A stretch of 64,000 bases of DNA from Bacteroidota bacterium (GTDB lineage Bacteria > Bacteroidota > Bacteroidia > UBA7662 > JAYUJN01). Under the pieces are notes generated by a model, which was not told the origin of the DNA, made no database searches, and worked only from the letters and a program-made list of their open reading frames with translations. Of the stretch, positions 3,001 to 47,620 are shown piece by piece. The stretch spans positions 17,761 through 81,760 of the forward strand of contig JAYUJN010000016.1 of assembly GCA_043765195.1 (NCBI GenBank), written 5' to 3'. Every line of letters starts with the position of its first letter. Positions within the stretch are counted from its first letter, which is position 1. Position numbers and translations under genes: made by a program.

Positions 3001-6000
3001 TTTACCTCCACTGGTTGTGCAGCAATGTCTATTGGTATTACTACCACTGGACCCGATGGCGTTAGGCAAGATGTACTGTTCATACCAGCACCAGCAGGTA
3101 CAGCAGCACCTTGGCAAATGGTATAATTAGTCATAGCAGGTGCCACAGGCGCAGTATTTATGGTTACTTGCACCGATTTTATAATAAAACAACCACTTGC
3201 AGCATCTTCCGACCTAATGTAGTAAGTACCGCCTACTGGAACTTGCGCAGGATTGGATACGGGATTTGCCGTAGCAGCCGCATCTATCCAGTAAGTAAGT
3301 GTAGTTCCAGCAGTGCTACCAGCCGTTACAGCAGGTGCAGTTAGGTTTACAGTAGCAGGCGTACATACCGCAGCAGGTGCAGTAGTTGTGAGCATTGGTA
3401 CTGGGTTTACAGTTACCGTTACTGCTGTACGTGTAGTACTTACGCAGGCACTTGAGTAGCCAGTGGCTTCGGTTTCTGCGTAGTATGTAGTAGTAGCCGT
3501 AGGCACGGTAGTCAGTGAATATACTTCGCTATTGCTTTGTAGCAATGTACCGCCTGTGGCAGCATCGTACCAGTTAATTTGCTTTCCAGCACCAGGAGCA
3601 TCTACTGCCACAGCAGGTGGCACATTAGAGCCAGCGCAAATACTTGCGCCCGAAGCACCCGTTGGTGCGGCTGGTGGTGTACAAGTTGCAGCACAGTTTA
3701 CATTGCTTAGGGTTACCGTAGCATCTGTAAAGCAAGTTGCAGAACTAAATACACGTACTGTGTAGGTTTGTGTGGTAGCAGGGTTAGCCAAAGTACTTGC
3801 TATCATGCCGCCAGTTGGTATGGCAGTAGCAGTAGCAGGTATAGCCGTAGCAGCATCAAAAGTGCCACCCACTGAGTACTGATAGGTATTTCCAGCCGCA
3901 AAGCCAGATAGCGTTATTTTACCATCGCTGTTCGCAGTAAGACCAGTACAAGTAACCGCCGTAGTACCAGCTGTGTATGCAGGCGGTGCAGTTATGGTTA
4001 CAGTTACGGGTTTTATATCCGTACAGCCCGATGGTGTAGTTGCTTTTATGTAATAAGTACCACCTACTGTAATAGCAGTTTGTGTGCCAGCACTTGCAGG
4101 TATCGGCGTAGTGCCAGCGGCATCTGCCCAATAGCTAAATGTAGCACCTGTGGGTAGCGTAGTACCAGCAGTTACTGCGGCTGCGGTTAAGTCAGCAGAA
4201 GTACCACAAGCAGTTATCGCATTGGTAACTACCACAGGGGTGGGCGCTACTATAAAATCTACTGCTGTTCTTGGTCCGGGGCAACCACCTGTTTCGCAAC
4301 TTGCGTATAGCGTGGTAGTACCTGGTGTGCTGGTGCTGGTTATGCCAGAGCCTGTTACACCTACTGGATTAAATGGTGTTCCGCTTCCAAATGATGTTCC
4401 GCCAGTAGCGGCAGCGTACCATTTTATATCGGCTGGGTCGTTGTAGGTAAGGGTTATCGTACCCGCATTTGGTCCAAGAGGGAATATTGCTTCATCAGCA
4501 GCATTGTCATCGAAATTATCCCAATACACAAAATCTAAGGTAGAAGTTACAGGTGTAAGACCCGCAGCAGCCGTAAATGTTTGGTTGTACGTAAATGGCG
4601 ATGTAGCATTACTCAAAGCGCCAATACCAGAAGCGGCTGCACCTGTGAGGGCATTTGCTAAACCGATGCGCATATCCACTTGCCATGAGCCACCGAGCAC
4701 CGTAATGCCTGGTATGTTTATGTTAATACCGCTAAGTGTAGTACCTGCTGGCAAGCTCGCCAAAGAAACACTGGCAAACACGTTGCCTGGTGCTGCGTTT
4801 ACCTCCGTAGGTTGGGCTACTATGTTCAGCGGTAATACTACTTGTCGGGTACAACTGGCTGCACGCACGCCACCGCCCGTAGGCACGGGTGCGTTTTGGC
4901 AAATGGTATAACTGGTTACCGTAGGTGCTGTGCCAGGCGCAGTTATGGTTACGGTTACAGGTGATATAGCAGTACAACCAGCGGTTGATGTTACTTTTAT
5001 GTAGTAAGTACCAGCAGTAGCCGCCGTAGGCGTAGCATATACCGTAGTAGCTGCTGCGGTAGTAAAGTAAGCCAATATGCCGCCTTGTAGGTTAGAGCCT
5101 GCGGTTACTGCCGCTGCTGTAATGTCCACGGTAGCTGGGCTACAAACTGGCGCAGGGTTCGTTATGCTTAATGTAGGTAGTGGCGCACGGGTAAGCGTTA
5201 CGGCTGTACGTGTGGTGCTTACGCAAGCTGGGCTATAACCCGTGGCTTGTGTTTCGGCATAATACGTAGTAGTTACGCTTGGTAGCGGCGAAGGTGCGAA
5301 GGTATTGGTGGCAGTAGCCAGTGCAATACCGCCTGTGCTGCTCTGATACCAATTGGTTACAAAGCCTGTACCAGGTGCATCTACCGCCAAAGGAGCAGCG
5401 AGGGTGTTAGCACCTACGCATATACTTTGGTTTACTGGATTGGTAGGTGCTGCTGGATTAACGCACGCAGCCGCACAGTTTACTACTGCTTGGGTTACGG
5501 TAACGTCTATAAAACAGCCAGCGCCACTTGCAGAAGTTATTCTTATGGTATATGGCTGAGATGCACTTGGGTTTGCCAAGTTATTTACAATCACGCCGCC
5601 AGTTGGTACGGCAGCAGCCGTGGCTGGCACCGCACTTGCAGCATCAAAGGTAGAACCCGTAGAATATTGATAGAAATCGGTAGCACCAAAGCCACTCAAT
5701 GTAATTGTTCCATCGCTGTTGGCTACTGGACCAGAGCAAGTTACATCTGTCAATGAAGCTGTAACCACTGGGGCAGCGGCTTTTACGGTTATGGTAACTG
5801 GCGCACCAGCACTTTTACACGTAGCAGCTATTTGGCATACGCCGTAATAAGTATAAGTACCCGCCGCCAAACTTGCGGTGGTAAACGAAACACCCGTACC
5901 GAGTACTGTGGTGAGTGCGGCATTACTATACCAAGTAAGCGTACCCGTAGTACAAGCTGTACCTGTAAGGTTTACTGTACCTGCACCGCAACGCTGTACG

Positions 6001-9000
6001 GTAGCAGTTACCGTAGGTACAGAAGGTGTAATACATTCGGCTGCTACTACGGTAGTGTTGCTCACAGCTCCACTTGTTGCACAAGGATAGTCGGCTATGT
6101 ACATACGGTAGTTACCAGTTACAGTAGGCGTAAATGTTACGCAAGTACCAGCACCATAAGCCGCCGAAAATACAGGAGGGCTAAGTGCCAAGCCTGCGGC
6201 ATCGGTAAGTGTAATGGTTGTTCCTGTACCACCACCATTTACGCCAGCAAGTGCTGGCATGGTAGCCGTAGCAGGCTCGGTGCAGTTACCCATACGATAG
6301 GTTACGCCAGCCGTTAGTGTCATTACAGAGTATTCTGATTTCCAATTATTAGTTGCAATAATTGTTGCAGCTCCTGGTGTAGGGTTGGCTATCGCAGAAG
6401 GAAATTGCGATGCCGTACCACCTGAATTTACGCAGGGTGCAGGCACTATTTCTGTGGCGCATATACCAAAACTTCCTGTGGTAGCTGTGCCATTGGGGTA
6501 AACCCTTATGTACAACTGCGTGCCAGCAGGCTGGGTGGCTATTATTAGGTTTGGCATGGCAGATGCTGGCGAAGTGCCATTGTCGTTACAGGCTATGGCT
6601 GTCATTGCTGTGCAACTGCCTGTATAAACTTCCATTGCGGCATCTGTCATTAGACCAGCCGTAGTGGCTATTTTCATAATGCCACTTGCTGGCACTACTA
6701 CGCTGTACCACACATCGGCACCGCTGTATGTACCGCAAGTAGATGCAGGAGCGGCTATGCTCGTGCTGCTTGTAGCTACGTAAGTTGTACCAGTAGTACT
6801 GGTGCAAGCAACTGGGGCGCTTAAAGCCACGGCGTTACAGGGTTCGTCGTTTGCGGGCGGTATTGGGTCGGTTACACAGATGCTAAAACTACCTGTTGCA
6901 CCCGATTTTCCCCACACCCTAATATATACCAGTGTACCTGGCGTAAGTGCAGAAAGGTTGGCGGTGGGCATAAGGTCTGCACCCGCATTGTCGGCGCAAG
7001 CTACGTTTGTCCAGCCAGTAAATATGGCGCAACCTGTTGTGCCTGTTGCGGCATAAACTTGTATGGCTGCATCAGTTATGTTAGCACCTACGGCTGTAGA
7101 TACATTCAAATCTATGCTCAACAAACCAGATGCAGGCACGGTAGCCGTAAACCACACATCGGCATCGCCAGTGGCGGTGCAGCTTGTGCCAGGTGTAGCA
7201 GCCGTGAGCGAGCCATCGGTATTTACATACGTACCATAGCTACAAGCATTGGCTACTGTAAGGGCTATGGCTGCACATTGGTCGTCGTTTACGGGAGGAG
7301 TTTGCGTTGGTTTGGCGCATACGGTAAACGTACCACCTGTACCATCAAAGTCGTATATGCGTATAAAGTATATACTACCAGGCGTAAGCCCAGTTACGTT
7401 AGATGTATTTTGTCCGTCGTTGGCTGCTGCTGATGCGCAAGCACCACCCGCAACGGGTGCGCCTCCGCAGCTACTTAGCACCGCAGATACTGGACGAAAA
7501 TCGGCACCGCCATCTACCACCACGGTCATGTTGGAAGAAGCGGCTGTAAATTTATAAAATATTGTTTTTTGCGCACCTGCACCACAAGTAGCATCGCCCT
7601 CATCGTTGGCGAACGCATTTATGGTTTGGGTTATTGTGGTACAGTTTATGTCCACGGGCAAATCTACTGCATCTGCGCAACGGTCGTTTGGCGGAGGCAA
7701 AATTTCGGTTGCACACAGCGTAAATGCACCACCTGCATCAGTACTTCCGTTGGGTCCTACACGTACAAGGTAAGTAGTGTTGGGGCTAAGTGCTGCGTTT
7801 ATGTTTACGGGTGTAGTAGGAAACGCCGTAGTACTTTGCTGTGCTGAGGTAGTAGGTGCTACGGGAGTAACAGCACTACATAGTGCTGTGAGCGTAGGGT
7901 TGCTGCTCGTCGGAGCGGTAGAGCCAATTGGTCTGCCGCAACCAGCACCGCTTATGCTATATACAGCGATAGAGCCACTGGCTGCACCGCCCGCAGTGCC
8001 TTGGGTAAGTTTTAGGTTTAGGTTACCTATGGCACCAGTGGTTACATAGTACCAAACGTCTTTGGGTGTACCAGTAGTAAGCCCGCATATTGGGTTCGTA
8101 GTACCAAAACTACCAGGAACTGTATTGGTGGCATTGAGTGTAGTACCTGCTACTGTGCTGGCGCATGGCGCACCAGATGGGTTTATGGGTAGCATTGCTG
8201 CAAAGCAAGGCTCATCGTTGGCGGGAGCAGCGGGCGAAGTAGCCGCTGTTACCGTAAAACCTCTGGCAGTAGATGACTGACAAGCTGTGCTTGCACCCAA
8301 ACCGTTTACGGGTACAATAGCCCAAAAATAGGCAACACCATTTGTAAGGGTATTTGACGGAACTACATAGCTAAGTGAAGTAGTGCTTACAGGAAACGTA
8401 ACGCCTGCGATAGTACCCGCTGTAGGTGGGTTGGTCGTACCTACAAATACTTGGTAGCTACTAGCACCTGCGGCTGCTGCCCAAGTGAGCGTGGGCTGGC
8501 GGATTACAGTTGTAGAATTGGCTACTGGTGCGCTAAGAACAGGACACGCTGGCGTGGTGTTTGTGGTCGTAAAAGTGGTATTGTTGGCACTACAACCTAC
8601 GGCTGCGCCTGTGGCATTTTTGGGTACTACGTACCAAGTGTATGAGGTTGCAAAAGTAAGACCTGCGCTGGCAGGTACTGTAAATGTAGTGGTAGCAGAG
8701 TTACCTATAAGCACACCTGGTAAGGTAGTGCCAAGATAAATATCGTAGCTGCTGGGCGTACCTGCCGTAGCAGATAGCGCAGGAACTGCCCAAGACAACG
8801 TAGGCGTGGTGGATTGCCCAGTAGCCGCAGCGGCTGGTGATGAGTTGGTGGTACAGCCAGGAGCAGGTGTGGGTGCTATGGTGTATAGCGCACCACAAGG
8901 GCTATCGGGTGTGGGCCAGGTATCGAACATAATGTAGTACTGTGTGCCTGCGGTCATGTTTACCGAAAGCGTTTTGGCTGACACGCTGCTGCTTACTGCA

Positions 9001-42679: not shown

Positions 42680-42746
42680 GGTGAGGGAAGGTGGGGCTTT
42701 GTGCTACGCTAACTGGTAAAACTGTACAGACTTAATGAGAAATATC

Positions 42747-42754
42747 TACCTTTG
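42747..42754 (+). promoter_or_regulatory. -7 box TACCTTTG upstream of the ATPase/nuclease-like operon
   Basis: Matches TAnnTTTG and lies 21 nt upstream of the ATG at 42775. Confidence 0.55.
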
Positions 42755-42774
42755 TAGGCAAAATTTGAAAAATA

Positions 42775-43926
42775 ATGAAAGAATCTATACATATAAAAAA
42801 TTTAGGTCCGATAAAAGATATTTTTATTGAAGATATAAAGCCTATCACAGTTTTAATTGGAGAGTCGGGGAGCGGAAAAAGTACCCTGATGAAAGCAATA
42901 GCACTTTTTAGGTGGCTATACAAAATGCACAATATTCGCTCGTATCTCAAAAGAAGTAAAGTTTCAAAAAGCCCATTTAGGTTTAGAATGGATACTTATT
43001 TTAAAAATTGTGGCTTTGACCAGTATTTAAAATACAACCCAGAGATAATCTATACCGTTAAATTTGAAAATGGAAATACATACACAATCAAATTTGCAAA
43101 TAACAAATTGACGGGAACAAGTGATAAAGACTTAGTACAATCAACTGATTTGCAATACAGCAAATTAAGTTTTATTTCTGAAACAAGAAATGTCATTCCT
43201 TTGTGGGCTGATAAGGGTGCGTCTTTATCGGGCGGATATTTAGGATTTTATTTTCACGAAGTATATAATGACTTTGTTTTGGCTTCGGAAAGTTTAAAGG
43301 AATTAGATGTTTCGTATTTAGACTTAAAATTATCTGTCAAAAGAGTACAATCTGAAAAAAAATACCTAATTCAGGGTAAAACAAACAAGTATGAAATTGA
43401 TTTTAAGAATAGTTCGTCGGGGACACAAAATGCGATACCCGTTTCATTGGTTGCTGAACATTTTTCCAATCATTTTGACTTCGAAGATGCCTTTAACCGA
43501 ACTCTTTTGAAGTTTTTGAGTCAGACAGATAATATTACAGATTTTAAACCTGTAAAAAACTTAGGGGACATTCAAAAAAAACTTTATATACACATTGAAG
43601 AGCCTGAATTAAGTTTGTACCCAGATGCGCAATGTGAACTTGTAAGTGATTTAATTTCAAAATGTTTCATTAAAAATACAAATGAAATTGAACTGATTTT
43701 CTCGACACATAGCCCATATATCATAAATCATTTGAATTTATTAATTAAGGCAAATGATAGCAATAAACTAATTGATGGTGCTAAAATTTCATTTGAAAAC
43801 TTGGCGGTTTATCAGGTTGAAGAGGGAAAAATAGAAAACTTGATGGTTCAAAATGAGCGAATAATAAACACAAATCCGCTTTCGGACACCATCAATAATA
43901 TTTATGACCAATATGCACAGTTATAG
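42775..43926 (+). CDS. ABC/SMC-like AAA ATPase (AAA_15/AAA_21-type), first gene of a putative defence pair
   Basis: 383 aa. Walker A is VLIGESGSGKSTL. Walker B/D-loop is LYIHIEEPELSLYP. The H-loop is IFSTHSPYIINHL. About 240 aa separate Walker A from Walker B, as in AAA_21/OLD/PtuA/AriA-type ATPases. The gene is strongly AT-rich compared with pepP. Confidence 0.85.
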   Translation: MKESIHIKNLGPIKDIFIEDIKPITVLIGESGSGKSTLMKAIALFRWLYKMHNIRSYLKRSKVSKSPFRFRMDTYFKNCGFDQYLKYNPEIIYTVKFENGNTYTIKFANNKLTGTSDKDLVQSTDLQYSKLSFISETRNVIPLWADKGASLSGGYLGFYFHEVYNDFVLASESLKELDVSYLDLKLSVKRVQSEKKYLIQGKTNKYEIDFKNSSSGTQNAIPVSLVAEHFSNHFDFEDAFNRTLLKFLSQTDNITDFKPVKNLGDIQKKLYIHIEEPELSLYPDAQCELVSDLISKCFIKNTNEIELIFSTHSPYIINHLNLLIKANDSNKLIDGAKISFENLAVYQVEEGKIENLMVQNERIINTNPLSDTINNIYDQYAQL

Positions 43927-44554
43927 CAATATGGAAAATTTACTTACAAATAATTTCGTTTCGCACTATAATATTCCTCTACCAACAACAAATTGGGCAA
44001 TAAAAACACAAGAGCGATATTTTGAGGTTGAAGATACAAATGCAGGAGAAATTCAACTGCATACAAGTAGAGGTGCAGGAATGGCAAAATTTTCGAACCA
44101 AGATACGCTTGAACTTACCATCATCAATTACGACGGGTTTATAACATCAATACCTGATGAAGTTTTTAAAAGTGGTAGAAAAAGATGCGATATACTTGTA
44201 ACTTGCAATACAGATAGGTATTTTATTTTGGGCGAAATTAAAGACAGGTCTGTGCTTAATCAAAACACACAAAAGAATGTTAGAAAAGAAGCTAAAAAAC
44301 AACTTATTTCGTCGCTTAACACAATTTTAGCAGTGCCTGAAATTATTAGCTACCTAAATCTTAAAGTTGTAAAGCGTTGTTGCTATTTCAACAAACAATC
44401 GGCTTCTCCTATAATTTTAAGTGCAACAACAGCTTTTAACCGACTTCTAAGTTTTTATCCCGAAGGCTTTAAAATGAGTAACCCCGACATGGAAAACTTA
44501 GGCTTTGAGTTTTACGAATATACAGGAGAGCAAACAATGGTGTTAAAAAACTAA
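43904..44554 (+). CDS. Small protein with a PD-(D/E)XK-like motif (putative nuclease effector)
   Basis: 216 aa. Alternative ATG starts are at 43913 and at 43931 (MENLL, 4 nt after the upstream stop). The 43904 start overlaps the ATPase gene by 23 nt. The motif is KRCDILVTCNTDRYFILGEIKDR, i.e. D...(E-x-K) on adjacent predicted strands, followed by a helix with KKQLISSL. I see no HNH or TOPRIM signature. Confidence 0.5.
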   Translation: MTNMHSYSNMENLLTNNFVSHYNIPLPTTNWAIKTQERYFEVEDTNAGEIQLHTSRGAGMAKFSNQDTLELTIINYDGFITSIPDEVFKSGRKRCDILVTCNTDRYFILGEIKDRSVLNQNTQKNVRKEAKKQLISSLNTILAVPEIISYLNLKVVKRCCYFNKQSASPIILSATTAFNRLLSFYPEGFKMSNPDMENLGFEFYEYTGEQTMVLKN

Positions 44555-44669
44555 AAATGTCATGGCTCTAATTAACATTAGACTGAACTTTACGCCAATT
44601 TTAATATTTCTACCTCTAACTCCAAACAACTAAACCGACCAGCTACGAAACGACAACAAGACGATAAAA

Positions 44670-46025
44670 ATGCAAAGAAGAAAGTTTTTAAAAGATACGA
44701 TAACGGGGCTACCCTTGCTATTTTTCACGCCTACACTTTTGGCGAGCTGTGGCAAGGGTAATGTTGCGCCCAACGGCAAAACGGTGGCGGTAATCGGCGG
44801 CGGAATTTCGGGGCTTGCTGCGGCTAAAAAACTCAAAGAAAAGGGCTTTACCGTCGTCGTTTTGGAGGCACAAGAAAAAGTAGGCGGACGAATACGCACC
44901 GACCGAAGCCTCGGCGTGGCTTTTGACGAGGGTGCGAGCTGGATACACGGACCAAACGGCAACCCAATTAAAAGTTTGGCTGCACAATCGGGGGCAAATA
45001 CTTTTCTGACTGCTGACGACAACGTGGTAGTTTTTGACAACAACGGAACAGCCTACCCAGACACGGTTTTGACCAATGCCGAAAATCAGTTTAACAACGC
45101 TTTAAATGCGGTTAGAAGTGCAGGAACGCAAACCCAAAGTTTTCAGACCATATTCAATTCACTTTACCCAGCACAAACCAACGACAGGCTTTGGAAGTAC
45201 ATGCTTTCTGCTTATTTGGAGTTTAATACGGGCGCAGATATTTCAAAATTGTCCTCAAAGTTTTTTGACGACGACGACGAATTTAACGGCGCAGACGTGA
45301 TTGTTACAAATGGCTACGACAAACTAACCAACTTTTTAGCCACGGATTTGGATATTAGGCTAAATACACGAGTTTCGGGCATCAATTATGCAAACGCAAG
45401 GGTAAATATATCTACCAACGCCAGCAACATAGAGGCTGATTATGTAATCGTTTCCGTTCCGCTGGGTGTGCTAAAAAACAATGCCATTGCTTTTACGCCT
45501 GCATTGCCCACAAGTAAAATTAGTGCCATCAACGACACAAACATGGGCAATGTGAACAAATTTTTGCTGGTTTGGGATACGCCGTTTTGGGATACCAACC
45601 TGCAATACATAGGCTACACGCCCGATACAAAGGGAAAGTTTAATTATTTTCTTAATCTTAAAAAATTTAGCGCATCAAATGCACTAATGACTTTTGCTTT
45701 TGGCGACTATGCCACGGCAACCGAAAGCATGACCGACAGCGAAATTATAAACGAAATAATGCTCCATTTAAAAAGCATTTATGGCAGCGGCATTGCCAGT
45801 CCCACCAATTTTTTGAGAACAAAATGGGGGCAAAACCTAAATGCTTACGGTGCTTATTCTTATGCCACAAATGGCTCAACGTCCTCCGATTTTGATACAC
45901 TGGCAAGCGAAGTGAGCAATAAACTGTTTTTTGCTGGCGAACACACCGAAAAAGCATACAGAGGCACGGTTCACGGCGCATATTTGAGCGGATTGCGTGA
46001 AGCCGACAAGATAATAAGCCTGTAA
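44670..46025 (+). CDS. FAD-dependent amine oxidase, predicted Tat-exported lipoprotein
   Basis: 451 aa. MQRRKFLKDTITGLPLLFFTPTLLASCG carries a twin-Arg motif plus a lipobox Cys. The dinucleotide fold is VAVIGGGISGLAAAKKLKEKGFTVVVLEAQEKVGGR. The C-terminal FFAGEHT is typical of flavin amine oxidases. Confidence 0.85.
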   Translation: MQRRKFLKDTITGLPLLFFTPTLLASCGKGNVAPNGKTVAVIGGGISGLAAAKKLKEKGFTVVVLEAQEKVGGRIRTDRSLGVAFDEGASWIHGPNGNPIKSLAAQSGANTFLTADDNVVVFDNNGTAYPDTVLTNAENQFNNALNAVRSAGTQTQSFQTIFNSLYPAQTNDRLWKYMLSAYLEFNTGADISKLSSKFFDDDDEFNGADVIVTNGYDKLTNFLATDLDIRLNTRVSGINYANARVNISTNASNIEADYVIVSVPLGVLKNNAIAFTPALPTSKISAINDTNMGNVNKFLLVWDTPFWDTNLQYIGYTPDTKGKFNYFLNLKKFSASNALMTFAFGDYATATESMTDSEIINEIMLHLKSIYGSGIASPTNFLRTKWGQNLNAYGAYSYATNGSTSSDFDTLASEVSNKLFFAGEHTEKAYRGTVHGAYLSGLREADKIISL

Positions 46026-46042
46026 CGACAATTAGACGAAAC

Positions 46043-46624
46043 ATGAACCCGATATTTTTTGAAACTCAATTGGAATTTAGAGAATGGTTAGAAAAAAACC
46101 ATAGAACCGAAACCGAGCTAATCGTTGGTTTTTACAAAATAAATACCAAAAAACCTTGTATGAATTGGTCGCAGTCGGTGGACGAAGCCCTTTGTTTTGG
46201 TTGGATTGACGGCGTGAGAAAATCTATTGACAAAGAAAGTTATTGTATTCGGTTTACACCCAGAAAAAATACGAGCATTTGGAGTGCTGTAAATATTGCA
46301 AAAATTGAGCATTTGACAGCGCAGGGGCTTATGCACAGCGCAGGACTTGATATTTACGAACACCGAACAGAAAACAAGTCGAGAATATATGCTTTTGAAA
46401 ATGAAGAGGTAAAATTGACGGCAGAATTTGAGCAACAATTTAAGCAAAATAAAATTGCGTGGGCGTATTTTCAAACCCTTGCGCCAACGTATAGAAAGCC
46501 CTCGCTGAATTGGGTAATGAACGCAAAACAGGAAGCAACCAAAATTAAACGCCTGAGCGAACTTATTACAGATAGTGCCGCCCAAACCAACAAATGGAAA
46601 CACAATAAATACAATAAAAAGTAA
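46043..46624 (+). CDS. YdeI/OmpD-associated family protein
   Basis: 193 aa. FREWLEKNH...GFYK...EALCFGWIDGVRKSID...RFTPRK resembles the YdeI (DUF1801-related) family. Confidence 0.65.
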   Translation: MNPIFFETQLEFREWLEKNHRTETELIVGFYKINTKKPCMNWSQSVDEALCFGWIDGVRKSIDKESYCIRFTPRKNTSIWSAVNIAKIEHLTAQGLMHSAGLDIYEHRTENKSRIYAFENEEVKLTAEFEQQFKQNKIAWAYFQTLAPTYRKPSLNWVMNAKQEATKIKRLSELITDSAAQTNKWKHNKYNKK

Positions 46625-46725
46625 AGCGAAGTAAAAAACATCAAACAACAACACGCAGAACCAAATTAGCATATTGGATAAAATTATAGATAAGCCCTTA
46701 CAGACCAAAGTTAAAACATAAAATA

Positions 46726-47502
46726 GTGTATTATATAATTCAAGAAAATATTTTTAGAGAACCAAATTATGACAACATTTTTTTGGTTTTAGAAAAACTG
46801 CATTTGTCATTTGAAATTGTAAAAATAGAACCATTTATGGAAAATTTTGCTTTTAAAACTGATTTAGAAAATGTATTTGTATATGGTTCGGTGAAACTGG
46901 CAAAGTTGGCACAACAATATAAATTTAAACCAGGTTCTTTTTATGGAGGCAACCATTCATTTGAAATATACTCAAAATATTATGGTGAAAATTTATTAAA
47001 CTTTGATAGTGAAATCTCCGAGTTTGGAAAAAAATTGAAATGGGAAATTGGAGAAGAAAAATTTATACGACCAAGCCAAGACGCAAAAGTTTTTACAGGA
47101 AAGAAATTCACCGAAATAAAATGGAATGATTTTGTTGAACAAACGCTAAATAACAAAGAAAAAATCCCTTTAAACAAAGATACTAAAATTCAAATTACTC
47201 AACCAAAACGAATTTACAAGGAAGCCAGAATTTGGATAGTTGATGGAAAAGTAGTTACAAGTTCATATTATCTTTTTCATGGCAATATTGAGTTTGAAGA
47301 AAATGTAGGCATTAACGGAATAAATTTTGCAGAAAAAATGGCAAAAATATATGAAGTAGCAGATGCTTTTGTGATGGATATTTGCTTGACGAATGAGGGC
47401 TGGAAAATAGTTGAAATTAATTGTGTAAATAGTGCGGGATTTTACAAAGCTGATATTGAAAAATTAATAACTGCATTAGAAGAAAAATTTAACCATATTT
47501 AA
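46726..47502 (+). CDS. ATP-grasp domain protein (DUF4343/R2K-like)
   Basis: 258 aa with a GTG start. FIRPSQDAKVFTGKKF is the Lys-containing ATP strand; EARIWIVDGKVV follows; FVMDICLTNEGWKIVEINCVNSAGFY is the D...E-x-N Mg/ATP-grasp signature. The gene is very AT-rich. Confidence 0.65.
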   Translation: MYYIIQENIFREPNYDNIFLVLEKLHLSFEIVKIEPFMENFAFKTDLENVFVYGSVKLAKLAQQYKFKPGSFYGGNHSFEIYSKYYGENLLNFDSEISEFGKKLKWEIGEEKFIRPSQDAKVFTGKKFTEIKWNDFVEQTLNNKEKIPLNKDTKIQITQPKRIYKEARIWIVDGKVVTSSYYLFHGNIEFEENVGINGINFAEKMAKIYEVADAFVMDICLTNEGWKIVEINCVNSAGFYKADIEKLITALEEKFNHI

Positions 47503-47620
47503 AAACAACAAACGACTCCAATAACGAGCGGATACTTAAGCAAACTCAGTACGTATTACATCTGTACTTCCAATACCATACCCTATAAATAACAACCCAA
47601 AGCAATTACCACAAAACTGA

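Follow-up and report, generated by a model that had tools for sequence, protein, structure and literature searches.

An AT-rich ABC ATPase and PD-(D/E)XK-like gene pair, remotely related to PDC-M29, as a candidate anti-phage module of Bacteroidota

A 64,000-nucleotide stretch of the genome of a Bacteroidota bacterium (GenBank assembly GCA_043765195.1, contig JAYUJN010000016.1, positions 17,761 to 81,760 of the forward strand; hereafter the window, in whose own numbering positions are given) carries an AT-rich cassette of about 1.8 kb, consisting of two open reading frames (ORFs) on the + strand that encode an ATP-binding cassette (ABC)-type ATPase (gene 1) and a small restriction-endonuclease-like protein (gene 2). 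With a probability of roughly 60%, this cassette is a self-contained, horizontally mobile two-gene conflict module with a probable anti-phage or anti-mobile-element role, of which the anti-phage function is what we infer by analogy with related ATPase systems. An earlier note, made from the letters of the window alone, had described two same-strand ORFs of 383 amino acids (aa) and 207 or 216 aa, which are indeed present at the positions given there, as an uncharacterised candidate system that could be placed in no named family. The latter statement requires revision, because the best matches of both proteins in PADLOC-DB are the two components of PDC-M29 (PDC-M29A and PDC-M29B), with remote homology to a bona fide pair. 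The label “uncharacterised candidate” is still accurate, as PDC-M29 is itself a prediction.

Comparison with a sister strain (L080) revealed that the cassette is accessory DNA. The backbone of this strain is 96.7% identical to the window, with blastn similarity that stops at 42689 and resumes at 44589, and the cassette site is occupied in L080 by an unrelated 954-bp segment encoding a short-chain dehydrogenase (L080 7787-8503). As the sister strain carries a different gene at the same site, the horizontal acquisition that had been suspected from base composition is confirmed. The G+C content falls from 48.9% in the 3 kb on the left of the cassette to 31.9% within it, in agreement with the drop from one-half to one-third estimated by eye; along the sequence, the fraction is 0.30-0.34 over 42800-44600 and about 0.49 over alaS and pepP on the left side. 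The cassette has a G+C content of 29-35% in almost every host and lies below its flanks in 35 of 36 loci, the flanks ranging across loci from 30 to 54% and reaching 65% at the divergent L050 pair. In blastn comparisons with 40 other loci, the left edge of DNA similarity falls at 42747-42775 and the right edge at 44556 at the latest, which is two bases beyond the gene 2 stop codon (at 44520-44556 where the similarity runs through this gene), and flanking DNA is never common between the window and these loci. No integrase, transposase or meaningful terminal repeats were found in the cassette, and the search for repeats and att-like sites at its borders returned only short repeats at chance level. 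There are no Rfam families or tRNA genes in or adjoining the cassette, and a retron-type non-coding RNA within it was ruled out because no Rfam family matched. A prophage- or plasmid-borne origin of the window clade was likewise rejected, since no tblastn match to gene 2 was obtained in any of 50,697 phage or 72,556 plasmid records and the one match in IMG/VR was a spurious P-loop hit.

The two genes are an obligate pair and are inherited together. A scan of 185,579 species genomes seeded with gene 2 detected the family in 42 of them, a lower bound as the scan used two peptide patterns, and tblastn placed an ATPase homologue directly upstream of gene 2 in 40 of the 42 loci. One of the exceptions (L032) is cut by a contig end and the other (L025) is a true orphan, in which a gene 2 homologue (1973-2692, 51% identity) lies on a 5.5-kb contig with no ATPase and with upstream ORFs on the opposite strand. 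A metagenome scan seeded with the ATPase retrieved relatives at 31-63% identity; among the 21 loci with at least 285 nucleotides (nt) of DNA downstream of the ATPase, a gene 2 family member follows directly in 20 (hidden Markov model E = 1e-10 to 1e-72; ATPases 35-63% identical), so that the genomic linkage of homologous pairs, a matter raised in the earlier note, is found in both collections. The remaining locus (L072) holds the most distant ATPase (1259-2458, 31% identity), whose top PADLOC match is still PDC-M29A and which is followed by ORFs of 149, 292 and 454 aa without a PADLOC match; a partner swap may have occurred there. At L062, two successive ORFs (5139-5513 and 5510-5704) together make up the gene 2 homologue (5139-5704), which is likely either a pseudogene with a frameshift or the product of faulty assembly. 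Across 34 loci, the identities of the two proteins to those of the window are correlated (r = 0.86), and the ATPase is always the more conserved, with a mean identity of 76% vs 51% for gene 2. The family is centred on Bacteroidota, with some members in Ignavibacteria and Chlorobi. Four loci (L027, L029, L042 and L047) encode ATPases 77-81% identical to that of the window on contigs assigned to Methylacidiphilales, Limnohabitans and Leptospira, a placement that could be due to cross-phylum transfer or to a binning or contamination artefact.

Judged by its sequence, gene 1 is an ABC ATPase with intact motifs. The Walker A, Walker B and H-loop motifs recognised in the earlier note can all be read in the product and are invariant in 27 homologues (Table 1), and the long insert between the two Walker motifs measures about 235 residues, close to the approximately 240 first estimated. 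Pfam assigns the protein to AAA_15 (1e-19) and AAA_21 (1e-16) and detects no C-terminal TOPRIM domain in the 383-aa product, which also lacks a long coiled coil. The top Foldseek matches of its AlphaFold2 model are all anti-phage ABC ATPases, namely PtuA of Septu, PtuA of retron Ec78/Eco7, the effector of retron Eco8 and GajA of Gabija, and the closest solved structure is Septu PtuA (8eea; E = 2.5e-9, TM-score 0.44). Together with the Pfam assignment, these neighbours bear out the proposed membership of gene 1 in the Septu/PARIS/OLD/Gabija class of ATPases. A sequence search of the PDB gave a sole match, the OLD nuclease 6p74.

Gene 2 carries the motif CDILV...GEIKD and belongs to a small orphan family with a putative nuclease site formed by D87, E102 and Q124. 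It has no Pfam family above threshold and no NCBIfam or PHROGs match, and, as had been noted, HNH (Pfam, PADLOC and NCBIfam), TOPRIM/DUF4435 and RloB (Pfam) signatures are all lacking; nor does Pfam detect a NERD domain. When 1.84 billion cluster representatives were searched exhaustively with a profile, only 293 relatives emerged, all of them stand-alone proteins of about 200-230 aa. The AlphaFold2 model of gene 2 is confident (pLDDT 84, pTM 0.81) and shows, at the motif, the order strand, strand (with the aspartate at its start), strand (with ExK), long helix and strand; the motif residues lie at or in the consecutive strands E97-101 and E106-113 (216-aa numbering), followed by the long helix and a fourth strand. 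In the model, this order would correspond to the canonical PD-(D/E)XK core. An alignment of 64 representatives, reaching down to about 20% identity and numbered here on the 207-aa form, supports the D...ExK site put forward in the earlier note as far as its acidic residues are concerned, with D87 and E102 each kept in 63 of 64 sequences, and not as far as its lysine is concerned, which is kept in 26. Q124 is present in all 64, and D35, N56, C86 and C150 are likewise nearly invariant. Position 104 of the ExK motif is occupied by threonine in 28 sequences and by serine in 10. Of these 38 T/S-type sequences, 97% have a lysine or arginine at residue 117 (seven residues to the N-terminal side of Q124), vs 8% of the 26 K-type sequences, percentages that may reflect few switches because the T/S-type sequences may form few clades. 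PD-(D/E)XK enzymes are known in which the catalytic lysine has moved to another position. The loss of K104 appears to be compensated by K/R117, implying a lysine that is relocated rather than lost, and this covariation is the strongest internal argument for a functional site in gene 2.

The closest named relative of the pair is PDC-M29, a PADLOC-DB v2 phage defence candidate defined as the cassette FAM_00005>>FAM_02872; the PDC set comprises 145 candidate systems whose prediction was based on genes lying within BREX, DISARM or type I restriction-modification (R-M) loci (Payne et al., bioRxiv 10.1101/2024.01.29.577857). Gene 1 matches PDC-M29A over its full length (E = 3.2e-36, 123 bits, profile positions 3-398 of 410), ahead of AriA at 1e-19, and PDC-M29A is the best PADLOC match of every ATPase member tested; bona fide PDC-M29A members score 445-488 bits. 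The only PADLOC-DB match of gene 2 is PDC-M29B (E = 3e-5, 22 bits, profile positions 40-122 of 164), which bona fide PDC-M29B matches with 161 bits. This profile is matched by 28 of 40 close relatives of gene 2 (best 8e-10) and by 26 of the 64 representatives (best 4e-13). In five distant pairs, the ATPase has PDC-M29A as its top match (105-145 bits) and the partners do not reach E = 1e-5 against PDC-M29B. The PADLOC models therefore half-detect the clade, in that the ATPase is seen and the partner is largely missed, and PADLOC would probably miss many of these loci. A bona fide PDC-M29 pair is found on a Persicobacter plasmid (L083), with a component A scoring 5.7e-147 and a component B of 168 aa scoring 5.7e-48. 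Both this pair and that of the window have A followed by B on one strand with a 4-nt gap, both small proteins share the active-site signature CD...ELK...QL, and both groups occur mainly in Bacteroidota. However, the homology is only remote, with 28% identity between the ATPases (2e-27) and 27% identity over 113 residues between the small proteins (2e-4). Profile-profile comparison of gene 2 with PDC-M29B-like proteins by hhalign gave a probability of 86% (E = 5e-6) over the CD...ELK...QL core. In addition, the small protein of the window has 207 aa (family range 200-230) vs approximately 165 aa in PDC-M29, the B proteins of L083, L084 and L085 having 161-170 aa and the models 162-164 positions. 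From these comparisons, we conclude that the window pair probably represents a separate clade within the PDC-M29 superfamily that is distinguished by a longer small subunit. An intermediate clade occurs on two gut Bacteroidales plasmids. On one of them, from B. finegoldii (L085, NZ_OY725969.1), a PDC-M29-like pair of an ATPase and a 166-aa hypothetical protein (4139-5702) lies inside a glycosyltransferase and O-antigen ligase cluster and not among defence genes. In a Chlorobiaceae metagenome-assembled genome (L049, 10862-14252), downstream of the cassette come a type II methyltransferase, a weakly type II restriction endonuclease-like ORF and a bona fide PDC-M29A (5.6e-134), so that a span of 3 kb contains two ATPases from one superfamily. 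This PDC-M29A, 2.4 kb from the cassette, is an orphan with no B gene downstream, and the direct comparison of both components was for this reason taken from the Persicobacter plasmid.

The junction between the two genes and the predicted promoter are also conserved features of the cassette. As described in the earlier note, gene 2 may begin at ATG 43904, giving 216 aa and a 23-nt overlap with gene 1, or at ATG 43931, giving 207 aa and lying 4 nt past the stop codon of gene 1; a form of 213 aa corresponds to the start called on other contigs. Gene 2 has 131 homologues in a collection of 5.8 billion proteins, nearly all of which have 200-208 aa and begin with “ME.LL”. As this conserved start coincides with ATG 43931, the latter is most likely the true start. 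Among the 37 loci in which both genes were placed, the tight junction is kept throughout, the conserved ATG of gene 2 lying either 1-8 nt past the ATPase stop or 23 nt inside a longer ATPase gene of 392 aa; both arrangements are consistent with translational coupling. The overlapping arrangement characterises a subclade with ATPases of 392-393 aa, in which gene 1 extends at its 3′ end exactly 23 nt past the conserved start of gene 2 at 16 loci with both genes placed (L016-L020, L022-L024, L027-L030, L034, L036, L037 and L048), L047 also belonging to it with gene 2 not placed. The equal length of this overlap and of that generated by the non-conserved ATG 43904 of the window is probably a coincidence. 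The TAnnTTTG box reported at 42747-42754 is present, and the window contains 111 matches to this pattern vs 85 +/- 10 expected, so that a single match is not significant alone. The promoter call instead draws on positional conservation, since 22 of 39 homologous loci have such a box 20-34 nt before the start codon of the ATPase gene, and both genes would be transcribed from this predicted -7 box promoter of the cassette itself. A scan for sigma-70 promoters and terminators gave counts at the level of shuffled sequences, with a consensus that is not the relevant one for Bacteroidota.

The combination of an ABC ATPase with a PD-(D/E)xK protein is not unprecedented. HEC-02, which consists of an ABC ATPase and a NERD protein, protects against phages with both genes being required (Payne et al. 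2024, bioRxiv 10.1101/2024.01.29.577857), and seven of nine related HEC candidates tested, including this ATPase and PD-(D/E)xK pair, gave protection (Payne et al., bioRxiv 10.1101/2024.01.29.577857). As a two-gene system of an ABC ATPase and a small protein of the PD-(D/E)xK superfamily, HEC-02 is the best validated functional analogue of the cassette. However, the window ATPase matches HEC-02A only over the N-terminal approximately 42 residues (43.5 bits), only two of 40 gene 2 relatives weakly match HEC-02B (9e-4), no NERD domain is present and the lineages differ. Septu resembles the cassette as a two-gene operon of an ATPase and a nuclease with PtuA as the nearest solved structure, and also in its proposed logic of an ATPase oligomer controlling a nuclease. 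Unlike gene 2, however, PtuB is an HNH nuclease, and the window ATPase scores only 24.5 bits against NCBIfam PtuA, for which the cutoff is 500, with partial PADLOC PtuA matches of about 35 bits. PARIS, OLD and Gabija share the AAA_15/AAA_21 ABC ATPase class with gene 1, and the PADLOC matches to AriA (69 bits), GajA and Old are partial. These systems use a TOPRIM domain as nuclease, as a separate protein in AriB and in fusion with the ATPase in OLD and GajA. No such domain is found in either protein of the window pair, and the cassette contains no helicase gene and hence no GajB-type helicase as in Gabija. Only one Pfam similarity recurs among the members of the gene 2 family, that to the N-terminal PD-(D/E)XK nuclease domain of HsdR (HSDR_N_2/HSDR_N). 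Gene 2 differs from HsdR in being a stand-alone protein of 207 aa without helicase or motor domains, and all of its scores remain under the gathering threshold.

Because an ABC ATPase oligomer controls a separate nuclease in Septu and retron PtuAB, PARIS and HEC-02, the window ATPase is proposed to sense infection and to license the gene 2 nuclease. If the pair works in the manner of Septu PtuAB, PARIS AriAB, Gabija and HEC-02, its ATPase would assemble into an oligomer that binds the gene 2 protein and holds it inactive, and a phage-derived cue or a change in nucleotide state would release or activate the small protein. Gene 2 would then act as a metal-dependent PD-(D/E)XK-type nuclease with the site D87/E102-x-K104 (or K117)/Q124 and cleave DNA or a tRNA, the latter being the target in Septu and PARIS, thereby stopping phage replication or the infected cell. 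PtuAB and AriB are described as cleaving tRNAs and causing growth arrest, and retron Eco8 as cutting double-stranded DNA in an ATP-dependent manner.

Several observations weigh against the interpretation of the cassette as an anti-phage conflict module. The best Foldseek match of gene 2, BsoBI, reaches only E = 0.021 with a TM-score of 0.28, and no match has E < 1e-3 in the PDB or BFVD. In favour of a nuclease, though only as a qualitative enrichment, the top lists from both databases are nevertheless dominated by PD-(D/E)XK proteins, each individually non-significant, including McrC, BstEII, the nuclease domains of Avs3/4, XisH, Hjc, BamHI and Card1 as well as EcoO109I, arenavirus endonucleases, RecU, MunI, herpesvirus UL24 and VRR-NUC proteins. 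Searches of PDB sequences with gene 2, both as a single sequence and as a 64-sequence profile, gave nothing usable. The Pfam domain HSDR_N_2, the nuclease domain of HsdR, likewise speaks for a nuclease in matching 23 of 40 gene 2 members, with a best value of 1.2e-4 that is below the gathering threshold, and no other Pfam family recurs in more than four of the 40; the window protein scores 14.8 bits vs a threshold of 25, in a match that spans the D...ExK segment. The fold and Pfam evidence is thus consistent with a PD-(D/E)XK protein at a level below significance, and the canonical lysine is missing in 38 of the 64 representatives. The AlphaFold2 model of gene 1 is of moderate confidence (pLDDT 68), with a good ABC core and a poor insert. 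Gene 2 diverges approximately 2.15 times faster than the ATPase, with variation spread evenly along its length, so that the presumed effector evolves faster than the presumed sensor, the opposite of a simple “variable sensor, conserved effector” arrangement. Concerning the genomic neighbourhood, the window cassette sits between pepP and an amine oxidase gene, and the 109 nearest ORFs at 35 loci (two per side) are mostly unrelated housekeeping genes, a minority being AbiEi/AbiEii, type II/IIG R-M, PifA, MADS or WYL genes; judged on these raw counts, defence-island enrichment would be weak. Finally, no experimental report was found for the window family or for PDC-M29, and the name PDC-M29 occurs in no searchable paper; a 2026 domain-centric discovery paper makes no mention of AAA_15, ABC or OLD. 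In favour of a defence role, individual loci are clear defence islands, namely L002/L003 with MvaI/BcnI-Vsr-Dcm, a Schlafen-like helicase and a MazG-like gene, L009 with AbiE, and L049 with a type II R-M pair and the second PDC-M29A mentioned above. According to the PADLOC authors, candidates found through embedding are seen together with other systems less frequently than those derived from islands (bioRxiv 10.1101/2024.01.29.577857).

Some of these observations can be accommodated by other explanations. The products of gene 1 and gene 2 might act together as a restriction-like complex that is constitutive and ATP-dependent and itself identifies and cleaves incoming DNA, a logic proposed for OLD, Gabija, retron Eco8 or McrBC-type enzymes, with no sequestered effector to trigger abortive infection. 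Such a complex, which we regard as unlikely while still deserving serious consideration, would fit the recurrent similarity to the HsdR nuclease domain, the presence of McrC and type II restriction enzymes in the gene 2 Foldseek lists, the DNA-cutting retron Eco8 and GajA among the structural neighbours of the ATPase and the lack of an antitoxin-like third gene in the cassette. However, the cassette contains no methyltransferase or other self-protection gene, its sequence shows no sign of DNA sequence or modification specificity, and the nearest structural relatives, the PtuA-type ATPases, are reported to work with tRNA-cleaving, growth-arresting effectors. A selfish addiction module similar to toxin-antitoxin pairs, in which gene 2 is the toxin, the ATPase its neutraliser and maintenance is ensured by post-segregational killing and horizontal transfer with no dedicated anti-phage role, is improbable. 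The minimal and mobile nature of the cassette, its foreign base composition, unrelated genomic contexts, strict linkage and tight gene coupling would be expected of such a module, and one orphan and one split copy of gene 2 suggest decay once the pair is separated, but the family is absent from the searched plasmids and phage genomes, where addiction modules are common, and ATPases of this clade are known from defence systems and not from classical toxin-antitoxin pairs. The distinction from abortive-infection defence is, moreover, partly semantic. It is equally doubtful that gene 2 has no catalytic role and serves as an adaptor or sensor built from a degenerate scaffold of endonuclease-like type, with the ATPase as the active component. 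The non-significant fold searches, the missing canonical lysine of most members and an evolutionary rate twice that of the ATPase, as expected of a surface contacting phage proteins, speak for this possibility; D87, E102 and Q124 are nevertheless kept in 63-64 of 64 sequences, which is typical of a metal-binding catalytic site, the lysine appears relocated, and bona fide PDC-M29B retains the same signature. A housekeeping DNA-repair or recombination pair like RecF/RecN or SbcCD, an ABC ATPase with a nuclease, is most improbable, as the weak P-loop-level NCBIfam likeness of gene 1 to RecN, RecF, SbcC and Rad50 covers only the N-terminal 40-70 residues far under the cutoffs, the ATPase has no long coiled coil, and the pair is sparsely and patchily distributed, exceeds every host in A+T content and is strain-variable.

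Within the interpretation of the cassette as an anti-phage conflict module, a more far-reaching and tentative proposal is that the Bacteroidota-centred clade might constitute a distinct type of functioning defence system, in which the enlarged gene 2 protein would be both the nuclease and an arms-race component, and that the 1.8-kb unit might spread between phyla into chromosomal hotspots without a recombinase of its own. This protein has approximately 40 residues more than PDC-M29B, a fold lacking a significant structural neighbour and an evolutionary rate twice that of the ATPase. If this proposal is true, the cassette would provide a tractable minimal model for the diversification and movement of ABC-ATPase defence modules. 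Pairs of an ABC ATPase and an effector are among the largest and most modular classes of bacterial immunity, and their Bacteroidota versions are almost entirely candidates. For one such version, a family of 293 sequence clusters is now delimited, together with cassette boundaries, a predicted native promoter and candidate catalytic residues, and it offers an apparent natural “lysine migration” in the active site and, through the sister strain, a natural isogenic comparison. Should the cassette prove protective, the PDC-M29 superfamily would be validated and the Septu/PARIS/HEC-02 paradigm would gain a small PD-(D/E)XK type of effector; its failure would caution against assigning defence functions from architecture alone. 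A further ABC ATPase-nuclease pair will not surprise specialists; the lead is sound rather than unprecedented, and it is directly testable. The coordinates of the cassette and its motifs are listed in Table 1.

Table 1. Features of the cassette in window coordinates; gene 2 residues follow the 207-aa form.
Feature	Position	Strand	Basis or remark
Strain-specific insertion/replacement segment with the cassette	42690..44588	+	Host junctions vs sister strain L080, blastn
Core mobile unit (promoter and two ORFs)	42747..44556	+	blastn vs 40 loci
Predicted -7 promoter box TACCTTTG (TAnnTTTG), Bacteroidota-type	42747..42754	+	28 nt 5′ of gene 1 ATG
Gene 1, ABC-type ATPase (AAA_15/AAA_21), 383 aa, remote PDC-M29A homologue	42775..43926	+	Pfam, PADLOC, Foldseek
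Walker A GESGSGKST, residues 29-37	42859..42885	+	Sequence; invariant in 27 homologues
ABC signature-like NSSSGTQ, residues 212-218	43408..43428	+	N212, S213-S215, G216 and Q218 invariant in 27 homologues
Walker B and catalytic glutamate LYIHIEEPE, residues 270-278	43582..43608	+	H273-L281 invariant in 27 homologues
H-loop STHSP, residues 310-314	43702..43716	+	Sequence; invariant in 27 homologues
Gene 2, PD-(D/E)XK-like putative nuclease, 207 aa, remote PDC-M29B homologue	43931..44554	+	Homologue starts, PADLOC, hhalign
Putative active-site segment of gene 2	44186..44302	+	64-representative alignment
Gene 2 C86-D87	44186-44191	+	
Gene 2 E102-I-K104	44234-44242	+	
Gene 2 Q124	44300-44302	+	

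Pfam identifies the neighbours of the cassette as an M24 Xaa-Pro aminopeptidase gene (pepP) on the upstream side and a flavin amine oxidase gene on the downstream side; a search for proteins identical to the amine oxidase gave no match. The possibility that the amine oxidase, OmdA, R2K ATP-grasp or dNK neighbours form a larger system with the cassette was considered and rejected, because these genes are not kept beside the cassette elsewhere and sister strains vary independently at them. In a relative at 83% identity, dNK directly follows pepP, and this arrangement together with that of L080 indicates that the pepP-dNK interval is a strain-variable hotspot. Most of the amine oxidase gene (window 44744-45900) is missing from L080, where a fused remnant at 8551-8830 retains the 5′ 74 nt and the 3′ 125 nt of the coding sequence, implying an ancestral gene that L080 subsequently lost from this site by deletion. 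A second accessory block of the hotspot (window 46026-47593), both genes of which are likewise missing from L080, comprises a YdeI/OmdA gene (46043-46624) and a very AT-rich R2K-clade ATP-grasp ORF (46726-47502; G+C fraction 0.26-0.31; PF14243, 6e-22).

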